From an uncultured Candidatus Binatia bacterium (lineage in GTDB: Bacteria > Desulfobacterota > Binatia > UBA9968 > CAXXLF01): 64,000 nucleotides of DNA. Location of the stretch: assembly GCA_965218425.1 (NCBI GenBank), contig OZ244621.1, positions 2,624,001 to 2,688,000 of the forward strand, given 5' to 3'. Both the position numbers and the translations under genes were made by a program. Below are positions 29,930-44,376 of the stretch, one piece after another (position 1 is the stretch's first letter; every line of letters begins with the position of its first letter). The notes under the pieces are model-generated. The model saw only the letters and a program-made list of their open reading frames with translations, was not told the origin of the DNA and did no database searches.

Positions 29930-30606
29930 TATATCCTAAATCTCCATTCATGGGATGTTGGAGTCTAGAGGGCCAGGGAGATTCAAGCAGAACTCCGCTC
30001 GAGCGTATCTCTTGTGGACTCGGTGCAAATCAACCAACTCCGCTGGGTTGGCGGTGCGGACGTGTCTTACTCTGCAAAGGAGGGGATTCTTTATGGTGCG
30101 GCGGTGGTCTTGAGTTTTCCGGAGCTATCGGTTGTAGAGGCGAAATGGGTCAGGGATCGAGTTCGCTTCCCTGTATTCCCGGCCTGTTAAGCTTTCGTGA
30201 GGCACCTGTCCTGGTAAAGGCCTTCAGTTTATTGCGGCAGCGACCTGACGCGATGATCTTCGATGGTCAAGGGATCGCTCATGGTCGGGGCGTGGGGTTG
30301 GCTTCTCATGTCGCTTTGTTTCTTAATGTTCCGTCTGTAGGATGCGCGAAATCGAGACTGATCGGTGATCATTTGCCGGTGAGGATGGAAAGCGGCTCCA
30401 TCAGTTGCCTTGAGTTTGAGGGGCAACATGCGGGGAATGTGATCCGGACGCGGGACGACGTGAAGCTCGTTTTCGTATCCCCCGGTCATCTTATGAGTAT
30501 TCAAGGGGCAACAGAGGTAGTCTTGGCCACCTGCCGACTTTACCGATTGCCGGAGCCCATTCGAATGGCTGACCAATTAGTGAATCGGCTCAGAAGGGAA
30601 GGATAG
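29930..30606 (+). pseudogene. nfi: Endonuclease V pseudogene
   Basis: Frame A: LHSWDVGV*RAREIQAELR...VGGADVSY...AAVVLSFPEL...VRFP (TAG at 29966-29968). A 1-nt loss near 30170 shifts into frame B: PCIPGLLSFREAP...DGQGIAH...VGCAKSRL...VSPGH...YRLPEP. No in-frame ATG. Confidence 0.85.
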
Positions 30607-30877: not shown

Positions 30878-32863
30878 ATGAGCTTAATTCTTGGAATCGA
30901 TACGGGCGGCACCTTTACTGATTTCATTTCCCTCTCCAATGGGGAAGTGATTGTCCACAAGGTACTTTCTACACCGGACAATCCGGCGCGCGCCATTCTT
31001 GCGGGTCTAGGCGCATTGGTTAAAGAGTCGGAAGCGGTGAGCGTTACCTATGGAACCACGGTAGCGACCAATGCGCTTTTAGAGAGGAAGGGTGCGACGG
31101 TGGCCTTTGTAACCACCAAGGGATTTGAGGACCTAATTGAGATCGGTCGTCAAAACAGACCTGAACTCTATGACCTTGAACCGCAAAAACCGATTCCTTT
31201 GGTGCCCCGGTCCCTTCGAATCGGCGTCGCCGAGCGGGTGCTCGCCACTGGTCATGTACTCAACCCTTTATCCAAGAGGGAAATTTTGCGGGTTAAGAGT
31301 TGGGTTCGAAAGAGGGCCGTGGACTCCCTTGCCGTCGGATTCCTTCACTCGTACCGCAACCCATCCCATGAAAAAATAGCGGCCAGGGAGTTCGAATCCC
31401 TGGGTCTTCCCGTCTCTCTCTCTCACCGCATCCTTCCCGAATATCGTGAGTACGAGCGATTTTCCACCACGGCCGTCAATGCCTACGTCGCTCCTGTGAT
31501 TGCCGGGCACATGATGGAGCTTCACCGGGCCCTCAAAAGAAGCGTTGCCGGGTTGAACGGTTCCTTACGGGTAATGCAGTCCAATGGGGGAGCCATGACC
31601 CTAGGTGGAGCCAGTGAGCATCCCGTGCGGACCTTACTTTCGGGACCTGCCGGAGGGGTGGTGGCGGCCCATGAGTTGGCGACACGGGCTGGAGTGAAGA
31701 AAATGATTAGCCTTGATATGGGAGGCACTTCTACCGACGTGTGTCTGGTGAACGGGGAAATCCCATTGACTTCTGGAAAGTTGCTGGCTGGGGTCCCTGT
31801 GCAAGTTCCAATGGTGGATATTCATACCGTGGGAGCAGGGGGAGGCTCCATTGCCCGTCTGGATGAAGGAGGGGCCCTAAAAGTGGGACCCGAAAGCGCT
31901 GGCGCCGACCCAGGTCCCGTTTGCTACGGTCGGGGTAGCAAGGTGACGGTGACCGATGCCAACCTTTTTTTGGGGCGTTTAAACCAGGATCGATTTTTGG
32001 GTGGAAGGATGAGCCTGGATATGGCGCGGACCACCAAAATCATGGGGGCGTTCGCCCGTACAGTGAAACTGAGTCCATCGGCCATTGCCTGGGGTATCAT
32101 CCAGGTGGTCAACAGCAATATGGAGCGAGCCATACGGGTTGTATCTCTGGAGCGGGGGCTGGATCCTGGGGAGTTCACTTTGGTTGCCTTTGGAGGTGCG
32201 GGTGGCCTTCATGCGGCGGACTTGGCGGAGGGACTCGGAATGTCTCACGTGGTAATTCCACTTCGGCCTGGCCTCCTGTCTGCTTGGGGCATGGCGGTTT
32301 CCCCACTGGTGAAAGATTATTCGCTCTCCGTGCTGGAATCCAATGCCAACTTCGGGGAAATTGAAAAACAAATTTCCGCTTTAACTGCGCGTGGGCTCAG
32401 GGAGATGGGTCGCGAAGGGTTGAAAAAGAAAGAAAGCAGAGTCTTTCTTTCAGTGGATATGCGCTATGCGGGTCAAGCCTATGAGATCAACCTTCCATGG
32501 GATAGAGGTTTTGCTCGTCGGTTCCACCAGTTGCACGAAGCTCGCTTCGGTCATTGTGACCCCTCCAAGGAGGTGGAAGTAGTTACCTTAAGAGTGCGTA
32601 TCCAGGGAAAAAAGGGAGTCAAAAAACCGCGCCCATTATCATTGAAACCGGGCAGCGGCAAACAGGCGTCTATCGGTCAGAGGAACGTTTATTTTGAAAA
32701 GCGCTTGCTCCGTTGTTCCACCTATGAGAGAGAGCGGCTGAATCCCGCCGACTGCATTCGGGGTCCAGCCGTTATCCATGAGTTCAGTTCTACCGTGGTG
32801 GTTCCGCCGGACTGGCAGGTGCGAGTGGACAAGTATTCTAACTTGGATCTCTTAAGAAACTGA
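30878..32863 (+). CDS. Hydantoinase A / 5-oxoprolinase family ATP-dependent subunit
   Basis: GIDTGGTFTD, KVLSTP, GTTVATNALLER, LLSGPAGG, DMGGTSTD, SAGADPGP, FGGAGGLH, MRYAGQAYE. Confidence 0.93.
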   Translation: MSLILGIDTGGTFTDFISLSNGEVIVHKVLSTPDNPARAILAGLGALVKESEAVSVTYGTTVATNALLERKGATVAFVTTKGFEDLIEIGRQNRPELYDLEPQKPIPLVPRSLRIGVAERVLATGHVLNPLSKREILRVKSWVRKRAVDSLAVGFLHSYRNPSHEKIAAREFESLGLPVSLSHRILPEYREYERFSTTAVNAYVAPVIAGHMMELHRALKRSVAGLNGSLRVMQSNGGAMTLGGASEHPVRTLLSGPAGGVVAAHELATRAGVKKMISLDMGGTSTDVCLVNGEIPLTSGKLLAGVPVQVPMVDIHTVGAGGGSIARLDEGGALKVGPESAGADPGPVCYGRGSKVTVTDANLFLGRLNQDRFLGGRMSLDMARTTKIMGAFARTVKLSPSAIAWGIIQVVNSNMERAIRVVSLERGLDPGEFTLVAFGGAGGLHAADLAEGLGMSHVVIPLRPGLLSAWGMAVSPLVKDYSLSVLESNANFGEIEKQISALTARGLREMGREGLKKKESRVFLSVDMRYAGQAYEINLPWDRGFARRFHQLHEARFGHCDPSKEVEVVTLRVRIQGKKGVKKPRPLSLKPGSGKQASIGQRNVYFEKRLLRCSTYERERLNPADCIRGPAVIHEFSSTVVVPPDWQVRVDKYSNLDLLRN

Positions 32864-33263
32864 ACCTGTCTTGTGAAACACGGGGTCCTTTTACACACAG
32901 ACCCCATGTTGAAACGAAAGTCTCCATTCGAATCCGTCCATCTACCCCAAGAGAGTCCGGAGTGTCTGGATCCACTTTTCCCGTGACCGTTAAACCCTTG
33001 GCGGATTGGTACCGTTTCGGGGCGGAAACGGTCTTTGGGCCCATGATGCCGCCGGGACGTCCCGATTGATACCCTTCAGCTCTCAATAGCTGTTGGGCTT
33101 TGCGAACCTGTTGCCGACTTGGGGTAAATTCATTTTCCTTGGAGAAGATACCTTTCACCTTGGAGGCGGCAATTTTGGCGTCCTCTTTCAGACCACGAAA
33201 GGTGGAGCATCCTCCCAAGGCAAATACGAAAACAACCACGAAAAGAGCAACGAACCTGTTCAT
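32838..33263 (-). CDS. Small lipoprotein: entericidin-like N-terminus plus peptidoglycan-binding (PG_binding_1) domain, possibly decaying
   Basis: LGGC lipobox; VRKAQQLLRAEGY..G..GIMGPKT..A.KRYQ..KGLTVTG; GGAGG RBS; 26-nt convergent overlap with the hydantoinase A gene. Confidence 0.7.
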   Translation of the reverse strand: MNRFVALFVVVFVFALGGCSTFRGLKEDAKIAASKVKGIFSKENEFTPSRQQVRKAQQLLRAEGYQSGRPGGIMGPKTVSAPKRYQSAKGLTVTGKVDPDTPDSLGVDGRIRMETFVSTWGLCVKGPRVSQDRFSFLRDPS

Positions 33264-33639: not shown

Positions 33640-33870
33640 GCTCAGATTCTTTCCCTTGAAGTGTTCAGCAAAACAGCTTCACTCAGTTTATCGCGCCAAG
33701 TCATTGACGTCGCAAAGAAAAATATTTTTATGCTCTCCGAACTTGGCATGCTTTGCGGTTCGACCGATTCGACAGGCTCACGGCCCTGAGGCTCTCGAAG
33801 GACGCGAGTCATTTTTTCCCGGAATGCGCTATCCAAGATTCTGCTGAAAATTTCAAATACGTCGGGTTAG
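33640..33870. repeat. MITE-like element related to family B, with a nested REP-like hairpin (33768-33801)
   Basis: Imperfect subterminal IR TTGAAGTGTTCAGCAAAA / ATTCTGCTGAAAATTTCAA; internal TCGCGCCAAG...CTTGGCATGCTTTGCG...GCGAG as at 30658-30859; TTCGACAGGCTCACGGCCCTGAGGCTCTCGAA. Confidence 0.55.
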
Positions 33871-34823
33871 CTTTTGGACAGCTCGAGGAGAAGTCTCCTC
33901 CAGGATTCAGACTCGCCCTTGGGATCCACCAGGGGGGATAGACGGGTGCAGTGGTCTTTCAGTTGGCGGTAAAAGTATGGTTCATTTTCAGCTTTTTGCA
34001 GGAGGCGGGTCAGGGCACGAGTATCGCCAACCGGGAAGTATCCTGGGTAGTTCTCGCCAAGTGTCCCCATTAGGCCGGTAATTTTTGAAGCCAACACCGG
34101 TATCGATGAAGCAAGGGCCTCGGACAGGACATTGGAACTTCCTTCAATCTTGGAACTGAGTGACATCAGGTGACTGTGGGCCAATACTTGGCGTGTCTTC
34201 CAATGGGGCAGCTCTCCTACCCAGTGATAGCGAGGGTTGCGCTCAACTTCCTTCCGCGCCCGCTCTCCCATCTCATTGCTCAGTGCGCGTCCTACATGGG
34301 TGATCCGTACACGAGACGATACAGGAAGCTGGCGGGCGGCCATGGCCGTGCGAAAGGGGTCCTTCTCGGGGCGCAGGTGTCCAACCACACAGACTTTGAA
34401 GACCTTACTTGCATTGGAGGCCTTCCCATTGACTTTAGGGGCTGACTGATAAATCGCCCGGGTCTTGCTGTGAAGGCGCCGTGGGAGTTCCTCCATGGCC
34501 TTCCTTTGCAGAACGATGAGATGCGTGGCAAGTTCGAGGGATTCCTGGGCACGGGAGTCCTTGCGGATATCCCGGTAAAGATCGGTGCCCGTGAGTACTA
34601 CAATGAGTGGAAGATTGGGAAACTTTTCGCGATAATGGCAGATGGACTCATAACTGCGCAGGGCGTGCAGGGCAATTAGCAGGTCGCATGATCGGCCGTT
34701 ATAGTTTCGTTCGACACTAACACGGTGACCCAGCCGCTTTAAGATCCCTGCCCATCGAAGGGCTGTAATCTGGTTGCCGTTTCGGGCATGGGGTGGCGCC
34801 GGCGTAATGAGCTTGATTCTCAC
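33867..34823 (-). CDS. senB: Selenosugar synthase SenB-type glycosyltransferase (TIGR04348 family, GT-B fold)
   Basis: ITPA..ARNGNQITALRW, LIALHALRSYESI, VVLTGTDLYRDI, SLELATHLIVLQ, VGHLRPEKDP, WVGELPH.KTR, SKIEGSSNVLSEA, LGENYPGYFPVGDT: the motif series I recall for SenB; GTG start with GAGG RBS. Confidence 0.88.
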   Translation of the reverse strand: MRIKLITPAPPHARNGNQITALRWAGILKRLGHRVSVERNYNGRSCDLLIALHALRSYESICHYREKFPNLPLIVVLTGTDLYRDIRKDSRAQESLELATHLIVLQRKAMEELPRRLHSKTRAIYQSAPKVNGKASNASKVFKVCVVGHLRPEKDPFRTAMAARQLPVSSRVRITHVGRALSNEMGERARKEVERNPRYHWVGELPHWKTRQVLAHSHLMSLSSKIEGSSNVLSEALASSIPVLASKITGLMGTLGENYPGYFPVGDTRALTRLLQKAENEPYFYRQLKDHCTRLSPLVDPKGESESWRRLLLELSKS

Positions 34824-34957
34824 ACTGGACCTCTGCTCTATGCAATTACGCGATCAGGCGCTCGGTTGGGGCTGGATACGGTCAATTGGTAAAACTCAAT
34901 GTTGCCCATCTGGCTCTTCCCGAAGGTTCAATTTTTGCGAATGTACGACACTTGCCC

Positions 34958-36142
34958 TCAAGTATCAAGTTCAAGATTGATTTTCATCATCTCCAACCAT
35001 GGGTGAAATTCTTCAAACCAAGGTTCCCGTTGATTTTCCAAGAGAAATCGATAGGCCCCTCCAAGGTCGGCTCGTTTTTTTTGCGTAAGGGCCAGGGGTT
35101 TTTCCTTGTCCTTTGAACCGTTGACCTGCTCACAAAATCTGCGAATAACCCGCCAGTGAGGTAATGCCGTTGAACCGAGTCGCTCCGTAACCGCAACTTC
35201 CCAACTCGATTCGGGATCATATCGGACCGGGTTGGAGGCATAGTCGAAACAGGTGGCAAGGGGAATGAAGCTAAGATTTTCCTGCAATAAAGGGTTATTC
35301 AGATAACCATATACCAGTTCCGGCAACCGGGGGTCTCGGCTTTTTAGGGGACCCAAATGCATTTCCATGCTCATGGTGAGGTCGTTCACGGGATAGTTGT
35401 CCCAAAGAATGAGGCGGCGGTGGAGGGCTTTCTTTACTTTTCTCGCATGGGCCAAGGTGATGGACTTTGAGACCACCGCCGGGCCAGTCCAGAAGCAGCA
35501 TACCGATTCGGGCAGATGCTCATCCAGGGTCTCAAGGAATGAGGGCTCAAAGGCCCCAAAGGTTCGAGCAAGAAAGGGATCTTCCGTGTAGTAGGAAGGG
35601 CAGATCCACCATTCCACTTCGTTCCAGAACTTCGATTGTCGGTTCAATATTGTTTTTAGCCACAGACCTTCGGCCTTTGCCAAGCTCCCGTCGAATAGTT
35701 TTTTGTCTTGGGGAAATTCCAACTGGGAGGGGATATCATCGAACAGGACAGCGAAGGTCCGTACACCGGCCTCGTACAGGCCCTTGGCTTTGGCAAGCAG
35801 CCAGTCCACGGGTTCGGCTGCGCCAAAGTGGAGTCCCTTTCCTGGATGAAACCCGTAGACGAAATCCACATCATGCTTGGTGGCTTCACCAATGAGTTGT
35901 AACAAATCCTGCCATTGCTGCTCTGGGTAGGGTTTTTCCCAGTGTTCCCTGTGATAGGGGTCATCTTTTGGGGCGTACAGGTAGGTATTCATTCTCCTTC
36001 TCTGTCCGAACTCGAAAATCGCGGCCCGATGGGACATACTCCAGGGGGGACCGAAAAATCCCTCAACAATGCCACGACGCTGAAAAGTCTGATCCGCAGG
36101 CATAGGATGAGTCAAAAGATATTTTGATTGTTTGTCAAGCAT
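34958..36142 (-). CDS. GH84 beta-N-acetylglucosaminidase (O-GlcNAcase-like), catalytic domain only, no signal peptide
   Basis: RGIVEGFFGPPWS, MNTYLYAPKDDPYHR, FAVLFDDI (catalytic Asp-Asp), CPSYY, WTGPAVV, LWDNYPVND; start could be 36142, 36160 or 36166. Confidence 0.9.
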   Translation of the reverse strand: MLDKQSKYLLTHPMPADQTFQRRGIVEGFFGPPWSMSHRAAIFEFGQRRRMNTYLYAPKDDPYHREHWEKPYPEQQWQDLLQLIGEATKHDVDFVYGFHPGKGLHFGAAEPVDWLLAKAKGLYEAGVRTFAVLFDDIPSQLEFPQDKKLFDGSLAKAEGLWLKTILNRQSKFWNEVEWWICPSYYTEDPFLARTFGAFEPSFLETLDEHLPESVCCFWTGPAVVSKSITLAHARKVKKALHRRLILWDNYPVNDLTMSMEMHLGPLKSRDPRLPELVYGYLNNPLLQENLSFIPLATCFDYASNPVRYDPESSWEVAVTERLGSTALPHWRVIRRFCEQVNGSKDKEKPLALTQKKRADLGGAYRFLLENQREPWFEEFHPWLEMMKINLELDT

Positions 36143-36243
36143 GGGGCCCCGTTGACCCATGGTCAAATTTGGGGTTTGGTTAGTTCGGGTCGTTTTTTCT
36201 GACGGTGAAAATATTGTTTTTGCATGGGAGCGCTGCGAAATAT

Positions 36244-37059
36244 ATGGATACGCCTAAAGCAATCTTTAAAAGCCCAAAATTCCTCCAGGCCATTGCTGTT
36301 ATATTCGTAAGCTATGCCGTGGTCTATGCTCAAGGGCCTAGCACGGCCATGATCACCATTCCCGCGGGGCCGTTTATAATGGGAAGCGATAGAGGTCCTG
36401 AGGACGAAAGGCCCGCGCACGCTGTAGAGCTCCCGAGTTTTGCCATTGACCGCACTCCGGTGACCAACGCTCGGTTTGCCGTGTTTTTGGACGTGGCGGG
36501 TCCGGAGAGTCCCGAGGGAAGACGCTTCTATGATGTTGACGATAATGACGCGCGCATCCACCGGATGGATGGAAGGTGGCAAGCCGATGATGGTTTTGCA
36601 GATCATCCGGTGATGGAAGTTTCCTGGTTCGGTGCAACAAGCTACTGCGGTTGGGCAGGTAAGCGCCTGCCCACGGAAGCGGAATGGGAGAAGGCAGCCA
36701 GGGGAACCGATGGTCGCAGGTTCCCTTGGGGAAACATCCCTCCAGATTCCAGCAGGGCTCAGTTCGATGCGGGATGGAATGAATCCGCTCCTGTGGATGG
36801 TTTTCCAGCTGGGGCGAGTCCCTACGGAGTTTTGGATCTTTCAGGGAATGCCTGGGAGTGGGTTAGCAGCGCCTATCTTCCCTATCCTTATAACCCGTCA
36901 GATGGCCGCGAAGATTTACGGGCGGGTCCAGTTCGTGGCACACGAGGGGGAGGCCACGATTCGCCGGCTGAGGAGTTGACCACAACCCATCGGGGTGAGA
37001 ACCTTTCGCGTAACTATCGAGGGGGACACCATAACATTGGGTTTCGTTGTGCAAGGTAG
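36244..37059 (+). CDS. FGE-sulfatase (SUMF1/EgtB/PvdO) domain protein, probably exported
   Basis: Signal-like N-terminus; IPAGPFIMGS, ERPAHAV, TPVTNARF, RLPTEAEWEKAARG, DLSGNAWEW, NIGFRCA; no DinB domain and no FGE catalytic Cys pair. Confidence 0.85.
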   Translation: MDTPKAIFKSPKFLQAIAVIFVSYAVVYAQGPSTAMITIPAGPFIMGSDRGPEDERPAHAVELPSFAIDRTPVTNARFAVFLDVAGPESPEGRRFYDVDDNDARIHRMDGRWQADDGFADHPVMEVSWFGATSYCGWAGKRLPTEAEWEKAARGTDGRRFPWGNIPPDSSRAQFDAGWNESAPVDGFPAGASPYGVLDLSGNAWEWVSSAYLPYPYNPSDGREDLRAGPVRGTRGGGHDSPAEELTTTHRGENLSRNYRGGHHNIGFRCAR

Positions 37060-37122: not shown

Positions 37123-38442
37123 ATGATAAAATTTTCAATGGTGCGCATAATACTACCAATGATTGAGCATCGAAGCATAACCCGGGTGCTAAATTACCAG
37201 TGGACCGTGGGCCTATTTTGCTTGCCGCTGGTCATTCTCTCAGCGATTCGCATACCAGCACAGCCATTTCCAACTCCCGTGGAGGTTGCCCCTGTGGTGA
37301 CCCAAACGGTGGAGGAAGAGGTCTCCTTCATCGCAACCCTCGAGCCCAATATTACCACCACGGCGGGTGCTGTGGTTTCAGGACGAGTTATCAGAGCTGA
37401 GGTGCGGGAGGGGGATCGAGTGGAGAGGGGAAAAACCCTCCTCATGCAAATCGACCGTACCTCCAGAGAGATCGCGCTCAGGGAAGCGGAGGCGTCAGTG
37501 ACCAAGAATCGTGAAAAATGGCAGCGCTTGCGACGTGGCTATCGCCTGGAAGAAGTGGCACAGCGACGGGCCGAATCGGAGGAGCAAAAAGCCATCCTTT
37601 CTCGCACGGAGCAGGACTTCAAAAGGGGGGAGCGCCTTTACCGCGACGAGCTTGTTAGCCTCGCTGAACTTGAGCGTCTTCAAAGCGAGTACCTTGCAGC
37701 CAAGGAGAAGCATGGACGAACCCTGGCGGCCCTTCGGATGGCTGAAGCCGGCCCGAGGCGTGAAGAGATCGCGGAAGCAGAGGCCGAACTCAGGGAGGCT
37801 CAAGCCAGATACGACCTGATCGCCTATGAGCTCGACCGTACGACTCTACGTGCCCCACTCACAGGTTTTCTGGTTAGAAAATATGTAGAGGTGGGCACCT
37901 GGGTAAGCACGGGTGATCCCATTGCCGACCTGGTGGACTTGAATCCCGTTTATGCCAGCGGGCCGGTGGGAGAGCGCAAGATTAGCCTTCTCCAAAAGGG
38001 CCTTACTGCAACAGTGGCGGTGGATGCCCTTGCGGGACAGAGCTTTGAAGGAATGGTGACCCAGATCGTTCCCCGTGCGGATCCACGAAGCCGAACCTTT
38101 CCTGTGAAGGTCCGCATTTCCAATGAGAATGGACGGTTGAAGAGCGGCATGCTGGCACGAGTTACGGTGAAAGTGGGCAATGGACGTTCCGGCCTGCTGG
38201 TACCAAAAGATGCCCTAGTTCGTAGAGGGGTGGATGAAGTTGTATTTGTGGTGGAAGACGGGGTGGCGAGACAGGTAAAAGTGAAAACGGGGCGCGCCGT
38301 TCAACAATTGATGGAGATACACGACAGCGATCTTAAACCCGACCAGGAAGTGGTGGTCATCGGCAATGAATCACTTACCGGCGGGGCTAAGATTCGAAAG
38401 ATAGACCGAAAAGAACCAGGTCGAGCACCAAGGACTCAATGA
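37123..38442 (+). CDS. RND efflux periplasmic adaptor (membrane fusion protein)
   Basis: VSGRV...VREGDRV, long coiled-coil hairpin, LRAPLTG, ADPRSRTFPVKV, LKSGM, VPKDAL; true start may be further downstream. Confidence 0.9.
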   Translation: MIKFSMVRIILPMIEHRSITRVLNYQWTVGLFCLPLVILSAIRIPAQPFPTPVEVAPVVTQTVEEEVSFIATLEPNITTTAGAVVSGRVIRAEVREGDRVERGKTLLMQIDRTSREIALREAEASVTKNREKWQRLRRGYRLEEVAQRRAESEEQKAILSRTEQDFKRGERLYRDELVSLAELERLQSEYLAAKEKHGRTLAALRMAEAGPRREEIAEAEAELREAQARYDLIAYELDRTTLRAPLTGFLVRKYVEVGTWVSTGDPIADLVDLNPVYASGPVGERKISLLQKGLTATVAVDALAGQSFEGMVTQIVPRADPRSRTFPVKVRISNENGRLKSGMLARVTVKVGNGRSGLLVPKDALVRRGVDEVVFVVEDGVARQVKVKTGRAVQQLMEIHDSDLKPDQEVVVIGNESLTGGAKIRKIDRKEPGRAPRTQ

Positions 38443-41400
38443 AGCTCATCGATTTCTGCATTCGCTACCCCGTGACGGTGATGGTTGGGGTCTTGCTGTG
38501 TCTCCTTTTCGGAGTCATAGGGCTATCACGCCTGCCTGTTCAGCTAATTCCTGCGGTGGATCGTCCTGAGATCACAGTTGAGACAGAGTATCGCGGGGCC
38601 GCACCCCTGGAGGTGGAACGAGAGATCACCGATCGCATGGAGGAGAAGCTCAACGCCGTTGAGGGTCTCAAGGAGATGTCCTCCGTTTCCATCGAGGGCA
38701 AGTCCACTGTGATCCTGAAATTTGATTGGGGGACCAACAAGGACATTGCCCGGCTGGGGGTCTCCGAAAAACTTGACCTGGTTACAGAATTGCCTCCAGA
38801 TGCAGAGGAATCGCAGGTCCGCGCGGTCAACACCGATGAAGAAAGTCCCATCGCCTGGATTATTGTCGAAACCACTCGTGACCTCAACGAGGTGTGGGAG
38901 GAAGTGAAAGACATTATCGTCCCACGGATTGAGCGGGTCAGCGGTGTGGGTGCGGTTTGGCGATTTGGAGGGCAGGATCGCGAGGTCCATGTGACCCTGG
39001 ACCCCCGGGCAATGGCTGCAAGGGAGGTCACCATCGGTGAGGTACGCCAGGCGATCCTGAGGGAGAACAGGAATATTAAGGGTGGTGATCTGAGTGAAGG
39101 GAAGAGCCGCCATATGGTTCGCACCCTGGGTCAGTTCACTGATATCTCCCAGATCGGCGGTGTCATCGTGCGTCAAGACCGGAACCGGCCGGTCTATATC
39201 CGGGATATCGCCACTGTGACCTTTGGCAATGAGGACCGGGATTTCGCAGTGCGCATCAACGGCCGGCCGGCCATCGGCATGGGAGTACTTCGCCGCTCAG
39301 GGGCCAACACCGTGGAGGTCATGAAGGGGCTCAAAGCAGAGCTCAACTATCTTGCTGAAGGTATATATAAGGGCAAAGGGATTCATCTTCGCATGGTGTA
39401 TGACGAGACGGAGTATATCAACGACTCTCTGGATCTCGTAATCAACAACATCTATTACGCTGCCCTTCTGGCGGTTGTGGTTCTCCTCCTATTCCTCCGC
39501 AGTTTCTCGAGCATCCTCGTCATTTCTGTGGCAATACCGGTTTCCGTAGTCACCACATTCGTATTTCTGAGCGGTCTCGACCGTACGCTTAACATCATCA
39601 CCCTTGCCGGCTTGGCGTTTGCCACGGGCATGGTGGTGGACAACGCCGTCGTGGTATTGGAGAACATCTTCCGCCATCGTGAAATGGGCAAGGACCGATT
39701 CCAGGCGGCCTTTGACGGTGCAAAGGAAGTCTGGGGGGCCGTGTTGGCCTCCACGTTGACCACAGTGGCGGTCTTCGTCCCCGTCCTGTTCGTGCGCCAG
39801 GAGGCCGGTCAGCTTTTCCGTGATATTGCCATTGCCGTCTCCGTTGCCGTGGCGCTGTCGTTGGTAGCCGCCCTCACCGTGGTCCCCATGCTCTGCGCAC
39901 GGGTCCTCTCGGCGCGCGCGCGTTTTCCCATAGCACCGATCCAGCGCATGTTTGATCTGTTGGACCGGGTAGGCGGAGTTTTCAGTGCTGGCATTGTGGG
40001 TCTCCTTGCCTGGCTCCATCATAGCTTTTTACGACGCGTGACAGTGATCTGGGTCATCGTCCTCGGATCTCTCACCGTGGCCTACCTGTTCGCGCCGCCC
40101 CTGGACTACCTGCCGAAGGGGAATCGCAATCTGATCTTTGTCGTGGTGAACACGCCCCCTGGCTTCAGCGTGGGACAAAAAGAAGAGATTATTACGACTT
40201 TGGAATCGCGCTTTCTCGGCATACCAGAGGTTGCCCGGCTCTTTGCAGTGGTGCGGATCGAGGACCCCATCATGGGGGCCATCGTCAAGCGGGAGGATGC
40301 CGACCTGAAGGGGATGCGTCGTGTTGTCGATGAAATGCGGCGCCGTGCCCAGGGAATCCCTGGCACCCAGGGCGTCTTCATTACCCAGTCTTCACTATTT
40401 AGGCAGCGCAGGGCGTTCTTTGGTGGTACCAACATAGATCTGGATGTGCGTGGAGATGAACTGGGGGTCATCCGAAACATTGCCGAAAGGCTACGTGAGC
40501 AAGTCGCAGGCGTCCGGGCGGTGAACTTTGTCAGCTCGACCTTCGAATGGGGAAATCCAGAGATTCAAGTGGTGGTGGACCGTGAACGGGTGGCTGCCCT
40601 TGGGCTCGGTGTCACCGAAATTGGTGAAGTGGTTGAGACCATGGTGGAGGGGACGTTGGCAGGGGATTATCGTGAAGGGGGTAAGGAGATCGACATCGTT
40701 CTCAAAGGGCCGGACCTCGAGCTAACCCGGACCCAAGACCTGGGTCAAGTGGTTTTATCGGACCGCTCGGGACGGTTAGTTCAACTTTCAGACATCGCAG
40801 CCATCAAACCGGGAACCGGACCCACAAAGGTCGATCATGTGGACATGGACCGAGCCATTAAGCTTACGGTCAATATAAGTGAGGGTATTCCACTGGAGCG
40901 AGCGGTAGGCCTCATCGAAGGGGCCGCGGTGGGCCGGGCACGGCAGGCGCTTCCCCTGGGCTATTCCATCGACGTCAGCGGTCAGGCCCGCAGCCTCGCT
41001 GAAGCTTGGAATTCCCTAAGGTGGTCCTTTCTCTTGGCCATCATCGTTATCTACCTTCTCATGTGTTCGCTCTTTGAGTCCTGGAGCCTACCCTTCATTA
41101 TTATGTTCAGTGTACCCCTGGCCATGACCGGCGGTATTGTTGCGGTGAGCCTCGCCCATGCCACCGAGCCGAGCATCAAGATGGACACAGTGACAATGCT
41201 GGGGTTCATCATCCTGGCTGGCATCGTGGTCAACAATGCCATTCTGATCGTGCACCAGACCCTGAATTTCATGGGAGAGGGTGCCCCTAGGCAGGAGGCT
41301 TTACTGAAAAGCGTAAGGAGCCGGATCCGACCCATCTTCATGACTAGCACAACGACGATATTTGCCATGCTACCCTTGGTGGTTTCCCGGGGAGCAGGTT

Positions 41401-41597
41401 CGGAGCTCTACCGGGGTTTGGGCTCGGCGGTGCTGGGAGGGTTGGCCTTCTCCACGCTGTTCACCCTGATCCTGATCCCGACCCTTTACTCCTTGTGGCT
41501 TGACATTCGGTTTCCCGCACGACAAAAGGTTCCTCAAACGGTTCCTGAACAGGAAGGCAAGTCCGCCGTGGCCCCAGGGGTCGCAGGAGGAGAATAG
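38439..41597 (+). CDS. RND efflux permease (AcrB/AcrD/AcrF family)
   Basis: 1052 aa; GMVVDNAVVVLENI, STLTT, GIVVNNAIL, RIRPIFMT; 4-nt ATGA overlap with the adaptor gene. Confidence 0.93.
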   Translation: MKLIDFCIRYPVTVMVGVLLCLLFGVIGLSRLPVQLIPAVDRPEITVETEYRGAAPLEVEREITDRMEEKLNAVEGLKEMSSVSIEGKSTVILKFDWGTNKDIARLGVSEKLDLVTELPPDAEESQVRAVNTDEESPIAWIIVETTRDLNEVWEEVKDIIVPRIERVSGVGAVWRFGGQDREVHVTLDPRAMAAREVTIGEVRQAILRENRNIKGGDLSEGKSRHMVRTLGQFTDISQIGGVIVRQDRNRPVYIRDIATVTFGNEDRDFAVRINGRPAIGMGVLRRSGANTVEVMKGLKAELNYLAEGIYKGKGIHLRMVYDETEYINDSLDLVINNIYYAALLAVVVLLLFLRSFSSILVISVAIPVSVVTTFVFLSGLDRTLNIITLAGLAFATGMVVDNAVVVLENIFRHREMGKDRFQAAFDGAKEVWGAVLASTLTTVAVFVPVLFVRQEAGQLFRDIAIAVSVAVALSLVAALTVVPMLCARVLSARARFPIAPIQRMFDLLDRVGGVFSAGIVGLLAWLHHSFLRRVTVIWVIVLGSLTVAYLFAPPLDYLPKGNRNLIFVVVNTPPGFSVGQKEEIITTLESRFLGIPEVARLFAVVRIEDPIMGAIVKREDADLKGMRRVVDEMRRRAQGIPGTQGVFITQSSLFRQRRAFFGGTNIDLDVRGDELGVIRNIAERLREQVAGVRAVNFVSSTFEWGNPEIQVVVDRERVAALGLGVTEIGEVVETMVEGTLAGDYREGGKEIDIVLKGPDLELTRTQDLGQVVLSDRSGRLVQLSDIAAIKPGTGPTKVDHVDMDRAIKLTVNISEGIPLERAVGLIEGAAVGRARQALPLGYSIDVSGQARSLAEAWNSLRWSFLLAIIVIYLLMCSLFESWSLPFIIMFSVPLAMTGGIVAVSLAHATEPSIKMDTVTMLGFIILAGIVVNNAILIVHQTLNFMGEGAPRQEALLKSVRSRIRPIFMTSTTTIFAMLPLVVSRGAGSELYRGLGSAVLGGLAFSTLFTLILIPTLYSLWLDIRFPARQKVPQTVPEQEGKSAVAPGVAGGE

Positions 41598-43256: not shown

Positions 43257-43366
43257 GGTGATTGATTCACGATACCAGAATTTGTCGGAGCCTTAAATAT
43301 AAAGTGCTTTATTGAGAACCGCATAATATAGTAACATTGGATAAGAACTTAATGTATAGTGGTGGT

Positions 43367-43870
43367 ATGGGAAACCCACTTGGAGTGCGACGGGACTTTG
43401 AAGCATTGGAGCGACGGCGGATGGAGGCGGGGAGGCTGTTGAAGCGAGGGCTGTCGGAGGCGGAGGTGGCGCGTTGGGTGGGAGTGCACCGCCAGTCGGT
43501 GAATCGATGGGCGCGGCAGTTGGCCGAGAGCGGCAGAGCCGGGCTCAAGCAGGCGGGGCGTGCCGGACGCAAGCCGCGACTGAGCCCGGCGGATCTGAAG
43601 AAGATCGAGGGCGGTTTGAAACGGGGACCCGAAGCGCTGGGGTACGACACGAGCCTGTGGACCGCAAGGCGAGTGGCCCACTTGATTGGGGAAGCCTGCG
43701 GAGTCACATACCATCCGGGCCATGTTTGGCGGATATTGCGGCAGTTGGGGTGGAGTTGCCAGCGGCCGACGGGACGTGCCTTGGAACGAGATGAAGAGGC
43801 GATCCGGCAGTGGAAGAAGAAGCGCTGGCCGGAGATTAAAAAAAAGCCCGAAACGAGGGGCGAACCATAG
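43367..43870 (+). CDS. IS630 transposase, N-terminal HTH part (orfA)
   Basis: AEVARWVGVHRQSVNRW, GRKPRL, LWTARRV, YHPGHVWRILRQLGWS.QRP..RA.ERDE. Confidence 0.88.
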   Translation: MGNPLGVRRDFEALERRRMEAGRLLKRGLSEAEVARWVGVHRQSVNRWARQLAESGRAGLKQAGRAGRKPRLSPADLKKIEGGLKRGPEALGYDTSLWTARRVAHLIGEACGVTYHPGHVWRILRQLGWSCQRPTGRALERDEEAIRQWKKKRWPEIKKKPETRGEP

Positions 43871-44376
43871 TGTTCGTGGACGAAAGCGGGCTGAGCGAGC
43901 GGCCGAATCGGTATCGTACGTGGTCGCCCCGAGGACAGACGCCAGTGCTGCAATATCACTTCAACTGGAAGAGTCTGTCGGCCATCGCCGGAGTCACCTG
44001 GTGGCGCTTGTACTTTCGAGTGTATCCGGGAGCCATCAAGAGCCCCCAGATCATCGAATTCCTGAAGCACTTGATGCGTCATGTTTCCGGGCCGCTGCTG
44101 GTAGTGTGGGACGGACTGCCCAGCCACCGGAGCCGGTTGGTTCGGGACTTTGTTGCCGCTACCGAAGGCGCGTTGGTGCTGGAACGGTTGCCGGCCTATG
44201 CACCGGAACTGAATCCCGTCGAATACCTCTGGGGATACTGGAAGCATCATGAACTGCCCAACTTCTGTGCCAAGGACTTCGCTCAACTCAGCCACCATGC
44301 TCGTCGCGCCCTTTGCCGAATGCGCCGCAGGCCTCGTCTCGTTACCGCCTTCTGGAAACAGTCCAGCCTTTTCTGA
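43840..44376 (+). CDS. IS630 transposase, DDE part (orfB), reached by -1 frameshift
   Basis: -1 frame KKARNEGRTIVFVDES...VVWDG..SH...LPAYAPELNPVEYLW; A8 run at 43838-43845. Confidence 0.88.
   Translation, partial: KKARNEGRTIVFVDESGLSERPNRYRTWSPRGQTPVLQYHFNWKSLSAIAGVTWWRLYFRVYPGAIKSPQIIEFLKHLMRHVSGPLLVVWDGLPSHRSRLVRDFVAATEGALVLERLPAYAPELNPVEYLWGYWKHHELPNFCAKDFAQLSHHARRALCRMRRRPRLVTAFWKQSSLF

Follow-up and report, generated by a model that had tools for sequence, protein, structure and literature searches.

The window analysed here, a stretch of 64,000 nt from an uncultured Candidatus Binatia bacterium (contig OZ244621.1, positions 2,624,001–2,688,000), carries a gene for a GH84 beta-N-acetylglucosaminidase directly upstream of the selenosugar synthase gene senB. 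This GH84 forms its own clade, which is associated with the selenoneine biosynthesis (sen) genes, and some role connected with these genes is probable for it. Our preferred reading, offered tentatively, is that the enzyme hydrolyses the selenoether hercynyl-Se-N-acetylglucosamine (hercynyl-Se-GlcNAc) to selenoneine and GlcNAc. The gene families involved and the selenoneine pathway are already known; the attached GH84 clade does not appear in the literature searched. Coordinates below are window positions unless labelled C1, the single contig (4.46 Mb, 97% complete) of the genome of origin, G000.

The senB gene (33867..34823, minus strand) is a full open reading frame (ORF) of 318 aa for a GT-B selenosugar synthase, scoring 403 bits against TIGR04348 (cut-off 300). 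The co-directional GH84 gene (34958..36166, minus strand; 402 aa, TIM barrel with a short helical tail) lies upstream of it across a 134-bp gap and scores 275.6 bits against PF07555 (cut-off 25). As an earlier note on this DNA had stated, the LFDDI catalytic pair is intact (residues 141-145, D143/D144), and the window contains neither a selD match nor a DinB+FGE gene in profile searches. The enzyme is also predicted to be cytoplasmic: its N-terminus has no hydrophobic stretch (best 12-residue Kyte-Doolittle mean of 0.58 within the first 70 aa, compared with 2.66 for the neighbouring FGE-only protein). The note's description of the neighbourhood was correct for these genes but had overlooked that neighbour, a divergent gene at 36205..37059 (plus strand) encoding an FGE-sulfatase-domain-only protein (PF03781, 183 bits) with a hydrophobic N-terminus. 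This gene was considered as the missing SenA and rejected, as it scores 107 bits against a SenA-model cut-off of 420 and has no DinB part.

The same note had regarded the pair as a stand-alone make-and-cleave module outside the canonical selenoneine cluster, a view that the rest of the genome does not bear out. A senA gene is present at C1:4060211-4061545 (NF041186, 483 bits; cut-off 420), and its product carries the composite motif xNEH--HRHxHYYN(F/Y)(F/Y)R given for SenA in the available part of PMC11030361. The selD gene, on whose presence the note's proposal depended, is found at C1:1307623; it is of the selenocysteine (Sec) type, with an in-frame TGA within the ASG*AAK motif, and stands beside selA- and selB-like genes (named from inspection of their sequences). 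An EgtD-like gene at C1:2962609 scores 287 bits, 3.8 bits under the cut-off of 290.9. The window's senB (C1:2657888) is 1.4 Mb from senA, and senA, senB and senC are not together at one locus, while in the two sister families senA is placed between GH84 and senB. Since SenA, SelD and the EgtD-like enzyme are all encoded elsewhere in this genome, the genes are best read as a selenoneine pathway in dispersed form, joined by one additional gene, rather than as a make-and-cleave system in its own right; the window contains a split cluster with a fourth gene, and selenoneine production by the known route is expected of the cell. This window documents the split state: GH84 stays with senB, and senA lies 1.4 Mb off. 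Near-identical copies of an IS630-like two-ORF element (labelled from ORF inspection) are located at 43337-44376 (plus strand) and at G000:C1:4059125-4060164, the second ending 47 bp upstream of the displaced senA.

The window SenB aligns end to end with SenB of Variovorax paradoxus (E 2e-61). It keeps the equivalents of N20, T23, H58, R61, T83, T85, D86, Q131, R155, K158, E231 and E239 (V. paradoxus numbering), among the catalytic and substrate-binding residues named in the available parts of PMC10891094 and PMC11237966. In its own numbering, the catalytic residue is K154 and the selenophosphate pocket comprises N17, H53, R56, T78, T80 and R151. From family membership and these residues, the protein is predicted to form a 1-seleno-beta-sugar from a UDP-sugar and selenophosphate. 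Arg22 of V. paradoxus SenB is replaced by Ile, as Ile or Met in the SenBs of the order, and the sugar-donor motif EGGAHV reads EGSSNV, with the Glu retained. Wherever the regular expression matched, the C-terminal domains of the order's SenBs (L071-L108) have EGS(S/A)N(V/A), and the other matched SenBs have EGGA(N/H)V; the substitution may reflect a change of sugar-donor preference.

The distribution of these genes was followed in 40 genomes of the same order (placed in Binatia from the titles of close homologs' records), with the window's own family designated f1 and two others f2 and f3. GH84 was found in 37 of them, senA in 39, selD in 38, and senB in 36 above the cut-off, plus two pieces at contig ends. 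Of the 37 carriers, 36 have GH84 and senA/senB together on one strand of one contig, GH84 being the upstream gene, so that the adjacency on which the earlier note also relied is conserved; the 37th carrier (G009) is interrupted by contig ends. In 34 carriers senA is next in line, giving the order GH84-(x)-senA-senB. GH84 directly precedes senA in all 18 f3 genomes (in one of which the contig ends after senA) and in 7 f2 genomes, and 9 f2 genomes have an alpha/beta-hydrolase and/or VOC gene in between. The two f1 relatives that carry GH84 have it directly before senB. All 34 scanned of the 37 long SenA-like ORFs passed the SenA cut-off. In genus g3 (G003 and G004; fragmented assemblies, 95% and 81% complete) the flanking FGE-MFP genes are retained, neither GH84 nor senB was detected, and the 445-667 bp upstream of the FGE-only gene contain no GH84 start; the joint absence may result from one deletion.

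The association extends to loci collected by GH84 similarity. Among the matches listed, clade members are accompanied by senA/senB in 14 of 18 genome loci (several of which repeat the G-numbered genomes) and in 22 of 43 metagenome loci, or 11 of 14 where at least 3 kb is available downstream; the corresponding numbers for non-clade GH84 genes are 0/62 and 0/37. A background synteny control drawn from the collected loci left too few ortholog pairs past the filters. In the wider class (132 genomes outside the order), some GH84 occurs in 29 genomes and senB in 6, of which 4 have no GH84 match. Two small genomes of another Binatia family (G228 and G181; loci L235 and L236) have a short divergent GH84 placed near the clade with weak support, and senA-senB on other contigs.

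The flanks of the cluster differ between families. In f2, egtD, a desaturase and LysE lie upstream and an AmpG-like MFS gene downstream, and in f3 an amidohydrolase lies upstream and an argD-like gene downstream (G000 itself has ~90 amidohydrolase_2 paralogs genome-wide, by tblastn). In L081-L088 and L123 the genes upstream of GH84 are egtD, desaturase-like, LysE and FGE-only. The AmpG-like gene scores below its family cut-off and runs towards senB from the downstream side, as at L075:5920-7176. Of the 18 f2 loci with a partial senB or with senB and some flank, all but one, where the contig ends, have it in this place; it is a candidate transporter of a GlcNAc conjugate.

By sequence (E 3e-67) and by fold (TMq 0.82; Foldseek E 1e-33), the closest solved structure to the window GH84 is the O-GlcNAcase (OGA) of T. 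terrenum, 5DIY. The structure model has a pLDDT of 91.9, with residues 1-20 mostly below 50; together with the alignment, this makes the ATG at about 36103 the probable start. The catalytic and sugar-binding set is present (G36, K67, D143, D144, Y193, W255, N257, D262, N291). Of 288 matches, 273 passed the coverage filter, and removal of duplicates left 268 distinct, near-full-length domains. In their alignment, 54 rows are at least 59% identical to the query, and the remaining 214 are at most 42% identical. These relatives form a clade with support of 98, separate from the GH84s sampled in other Binatia orders, in a tree of 122 rows built by a quick method with SH-aLRT support only. The clade is marked by FHPG in place of (I/L)SPG, an insert after the CPSYY motif, and Phe38, which is found in 54/54 clade rows and 3/214 others. 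Phe38 aligns to Tyr189 of CpOGA, which corresponds to Tyr69 of human OGA (chain offset confirmed on D298), where Tyr is expected. Replacement by Phe of a Tyr that hydrogen-bonds the general acid would suit a leaving group needing little acid help.

With a cytoplasmic bacterial OGA as its closest solved relative, the enzyme might act as a protein O-GlcNAcase or as a nutritional GlcNAc scavenger. We consider this very improbable: neither a GT41 O-GlcNAc transferase (OGT) nor NagA was found in any of the 5 genomes searched, and the short helical tail, the insert after CPSYY and the lack of a hydrophobic signal stretch also speak against it.

We propose instead that the ancestor of this Binatia order had a GH84-senA-senB cluster, of which the window retains a part, senA having been relocated in this family, and that GH84 serves as an accessory fourth enzyme. 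Along the known route, SelD would supply selenophosphate, SenB would convert it to 1-seleno-beta-GlcNAc, and SenA would join this to hercynine from the EgtD-like enzyme, giving the hercynyl-SeGlcNAc selenoxide. According to the available text of bioRxiv 10.1101/2022.04.13.486033, this selenoxide is proposed to eliminate spontaneously, internal Cope elimination being the main route; the reduced hercynyl-SeGlcNAc selenoether was observed there in SenA reactions with dithiothreitol, as repeated in the review PMC10903977 (available part). In the proposed side branch, thiols would reduce the selenoxide to the selenoether, and GH84 would cleave its C1-Se bond by substrate-assisted catalysis (D143/D144), yielding selenoneine together with GlcNAc. 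An AmgK-like kinase could then channel the freed sugar back towards UDP-GlcNAc. We infer the formation of the selenoether in vivo, the C-Se hydrolysis by this GH84 and the route of GlcNAc salvage. OGA reportedly cleaves thioglycosides without general acid catalysis, as holds for activated aryl thioglycosides. In the selenoether, beta-GlcNAc carries a heteroaryl selenolate as the leaving group, and the GH84 mechanism uses acetamido participation (PMC10636738, available part). Of the three options raised in the earlier note (selenium release or transfer, recycling of a selenosugar store, deglycosylation of an intermediate), deglycosylation of a pathway intermediate fits best.

The Cope elimination also suggests another substrate. 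The sugar by-product expected from this chemistry is a glycal, so GH84 might hydrate 2-acetamido-D-glucal to GlcNAc or remove it as a hexosaminidase inhibitor. Hexosaminidases are able to hydrate such glycals, but their turnover is slow, which counts against this alternative, and the sugar by-product of SenA is not identified in the literature consulted; 2-N-acetyl glycals are, for their part, listed among hexosaminidase inhibitors (PMC6017319). We regard this role as improbable.

Several observations weigh against selenoether cleavage. As the 40 genomes are kin, the linkage across the order is one inherited, retained arrangement and not 36 independent events. In addition, senB may not depend on transcription from GH84: a sigma70-like site, TTGATA-17-TACATT (34940..34968, minus strand), lies upstream of senB and overlaps the GH84 stop. 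With 9/12 consensus matches, this candidate internal promoter is by itself at chance level (3 found compared with 2.6 expected in the promoter scan), as is the combined promoter and terminator scan taken alone. DNA identity with the same-genus genome G001 begins exactly at TTGATA; the conservation of a stretch that is non-coding in G001 argues that senB probably has its own promoter here. No senA remnant was found in the 134-bp gap (tblastn, E<=1).

Phe38 is suggestive only and not diagnostic, because human OGA Y69F, in which the hydrogen bond to the general acid is abolished, keeps its activity on O-glycopeptides (PMC3476531, available part); the GH84 membership of the clade stands. Furthermore, an alkyl S-GlcNAc peptide was not hydrolysed by human OGA, according to the available part of PMC10636738, and the three-gene system of V. 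paradoxus yields selenoneine without a hydrolase (bioRxiv 10.1101/2022.04.13.486033, available text).

The copies in Betaproteobacteria, found in Burkholderiales metagenome-assembled genomes (MAGs) and their relatives and nested at two places inside the GH84 clade, point in both directions. The GH84 of G066 branches within the Binatia clade, but its gene is 2.35 kb away from a senB that groups with the betaproteobacterial SenBs (support 100/100), with ArsR-rhodanese, fatty-acid-hydroxylase, rhodanese-like and SemiSWEET-like genes in between (the last two labels were not obtained from a family scan) and senA on another contig; the metagenome locus L251 contains the same cassette. This appears to be a re-association of GH84 with senB after transfer and gives one sign of independent linkage. 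Against it stands the wider sample of 121 genomes around a Burkholderiales MAG (G141, G082 and G055, which have senB, being unpublished). Here senB is present in 86 genomes (71%) and GH84 in only 7, and most sen producers thus have no such GH84; given this and the V. paradoxus system, the enzyme is dispensable for selenoneine synthesis. All 7 intact betaproteobacterial copies reside in genomes with senB (co-occurrence of 6/6 in the sample), but at a baseline of 86/121 this is uninformative and was rejected as evidence. Only 1 of the 7 is near senB and 6 are unlinked. In the unpublished genome G044, GH84 and senA-senB are on separate contigs. The G044 locus (L123) also has a betaine-type ABC transporter, which could carry hercynine or selenoneine. 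Lastly, the clade GH84 of G075 is frameshifted by one base within a T run, which may be a sequencing error, and a search for senB in this genome gave no match at E<=1e-40. Interpretation of this copy as a pseudogene lost together with senB was dropped, the shift being a single base in a T run.

In the split clusters (3/3 f1 carriers and G066) GH84 remains with senB, not senA, a pattern that a SenB-product substrate would explain no less well than the selenoether. The earlier note had suggested such a substrate; in this reading GH84 would act on the pool of SenB products to release stored selenide or clear an excess. The beta configuration of the SenB product matches GH84 specificity, and ArsR-rhodanese, rhodanese-like and SemiSWEET-like genes stand between GH84 and senB in G066. 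However, all linked genomes tested also carry senA, and without regulation, hydrolysis of the pool would work against SenA and spend ATP in a futile cycle. An anionic selenolate is also cleaved less readily than a neutral aryl selenoglycoside. We consider pool hydrolysis rather unlikely; its candidate substrates are free Se-GlcNAc, its diselenide, mixed selenosulfides, alkylated forms and mis-made thio-GlcNAc.

The strongest competitor of selenoether cleavage, though still unlikely in our view, is a housekeeping role: GH84 would be a beta-GlcNAcase unconnected with the pathway, such as a stand-in for NagZ in the recycling of peptidoglycan, and would owe its place beside the sen genes to inherited synteny. 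Such a role is plausible in G000, where the genome search found no GH3 NagZ, AmpG scores 504 bits (cut-off 350), AnmK is above its cut-off, and AmgK-like and MurU-like proteins are below theirs. The f2 AmpG-like MFS gene convergent with senB (250 bits, under the cut-off of 350) would fit as well. Moreover, synteny also partly extends to the FGE-only and RND genes, which are shared in part between families (FGE-only near GH84 in f1 and part of f2, not in f3), and most transferred GH84 copies are unlinked to sen genes. On the other hand, the other neighbours vary between families while the GH84-sen association is constant. The distribution of GH84 is neither complementary to that of GH3 NagZ (f1 0/4, f2 17/18, f3 0/18 of the relatives searched) nor matched to that of AnmK (f1 3/4, f2 0/18, f3 0/18). 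A GH3 NagZ-like gene coexists with GH84 in 16/17 f2 carriers and in 5/5 betaproteobacterial carriers searched; f3 has neither NagZ nor AnmK, yet GH84 is present in 18/18; and G003, a fragmented assembly, has kept AnmK, with GH84 not detected. We therefore rank cleavage of the selenoether first, followed by the housekeeping role, hydrolysis of the free selenosugar pool, glycal hydration and, last, a protein or nutritional GlcNAcase. The recycling genes themselves are partly grouped in G000, amgK-like, murU-like and anmK genes occurring together at L248 (G000:C1:1408559-1411641) and AmpG elsewhere. In f1 no gene accounts for the splitting of GlcNAc-anhydro-MurNAc (GH3 NagZ is missing from G000).

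Other genes surround the pair in the window. The FGE-only gene (36205-37059, plus strand) is upstream of an RND pair and has a 49% identical paralog at C1:1992210-1993259. The pair (37123-41597, plus strand) consists of a periplasmic adaptor gene and an AcrB-like gene (1052 aa), the former of which also occurs upstream of GH84 in most f3 genomes. On the other side of senB are an endonuclease V gene (29950-30606, plus strand), which the model covers only from residue 70 of its ORF onwards, a hydantoinase A-like gene with no adjoining B subunit (30878-32863, plus strand), and a peptidoglycan-binding lipoprotein-like gene (32838-33263, minus strand).

In the literature searched, which largely excluded subscription journals and supplements, we found no glycosidase, GH84 or other, linked to sen genes, and no natural selenoglycoside hydrolase. 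GH84 is also absent from the NHISS neighbour table in the available part of PMC13674229, which covers families above 1% and three rarer ones. Selenoneine synthesis is described in the available text of bioRxiv 10.1101/2022.04.13.486033 as three enzymes ending in spontaneous elimination, with the selenoether as a side product. The GH84 clade may possibly represent a dedicated natural C-Se glycoside hydrolase that frees selenoneine from its GlcNAc conjugate; the selenoether would then serve as a redox-stable store or as an intermediate that the pathway can use, and GlcNAc would cycle as a reusable carrier of selenium. If this is true, the selenoether branch has an enzymatic exit in the form of a dedicated glycosidase, the first natural selenoglycoside hydrolase in the literature searched. 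It would also give a cytoplasmic bacterial GH84 a small-molecule role and could raise engineered selenoneine yields. Substrates for an assay are obtainable from the published SenB and SenA reactions.

Compared with the senA-senB-senC cluster of V. paradoxus (available parts of bioRxiv 10.1101/2022.04.13.486033, PMC10891094 and PMC11237966), the SenA and SenB of G000 pass the family cut-offs and keep the catalytic and binding residues, and SelD and an EgtD-like enzyme are likewise encoded in the genome. However, the senB of G000 has no adjoining dedicated senC, the sole selD above the cut-off being Sec-containing and close to genes resembling selA and selB; the distance to senA is 1.4 Mb; GH84 is attached; and SenB has EGS(S/A)N(V/A), with Ile/Met for Arg22. 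The ovs cluster for ovoselenol (OvsA; PMC11030361, available part) is similar in combining senB/C with an added enzyme and in that chromosomal separation of its genes is possible, and in phmmer comparisons the NHISS of G000 has a higher score with OvsA chains than with V. paradoxus SenA. In contrast to OvsA with its MQA, this NHISS has the hercynine-type Y..Y/NF(F/Y) motif of SenA, and the added gene encodes a glycosidase and not a methyltransferase. With the GH84 O-GlcNAcases (T. terrenum 5DIY, C. perfringens NagJ, human OGA) the window enzyme shares the fold and the sugar-binding and catalytic set, and it differs from them in its ~33% identity, Phe38 for Tyr, FHPG, the CPSYY insert, the short tail and the selenium-gene neighbourhood.

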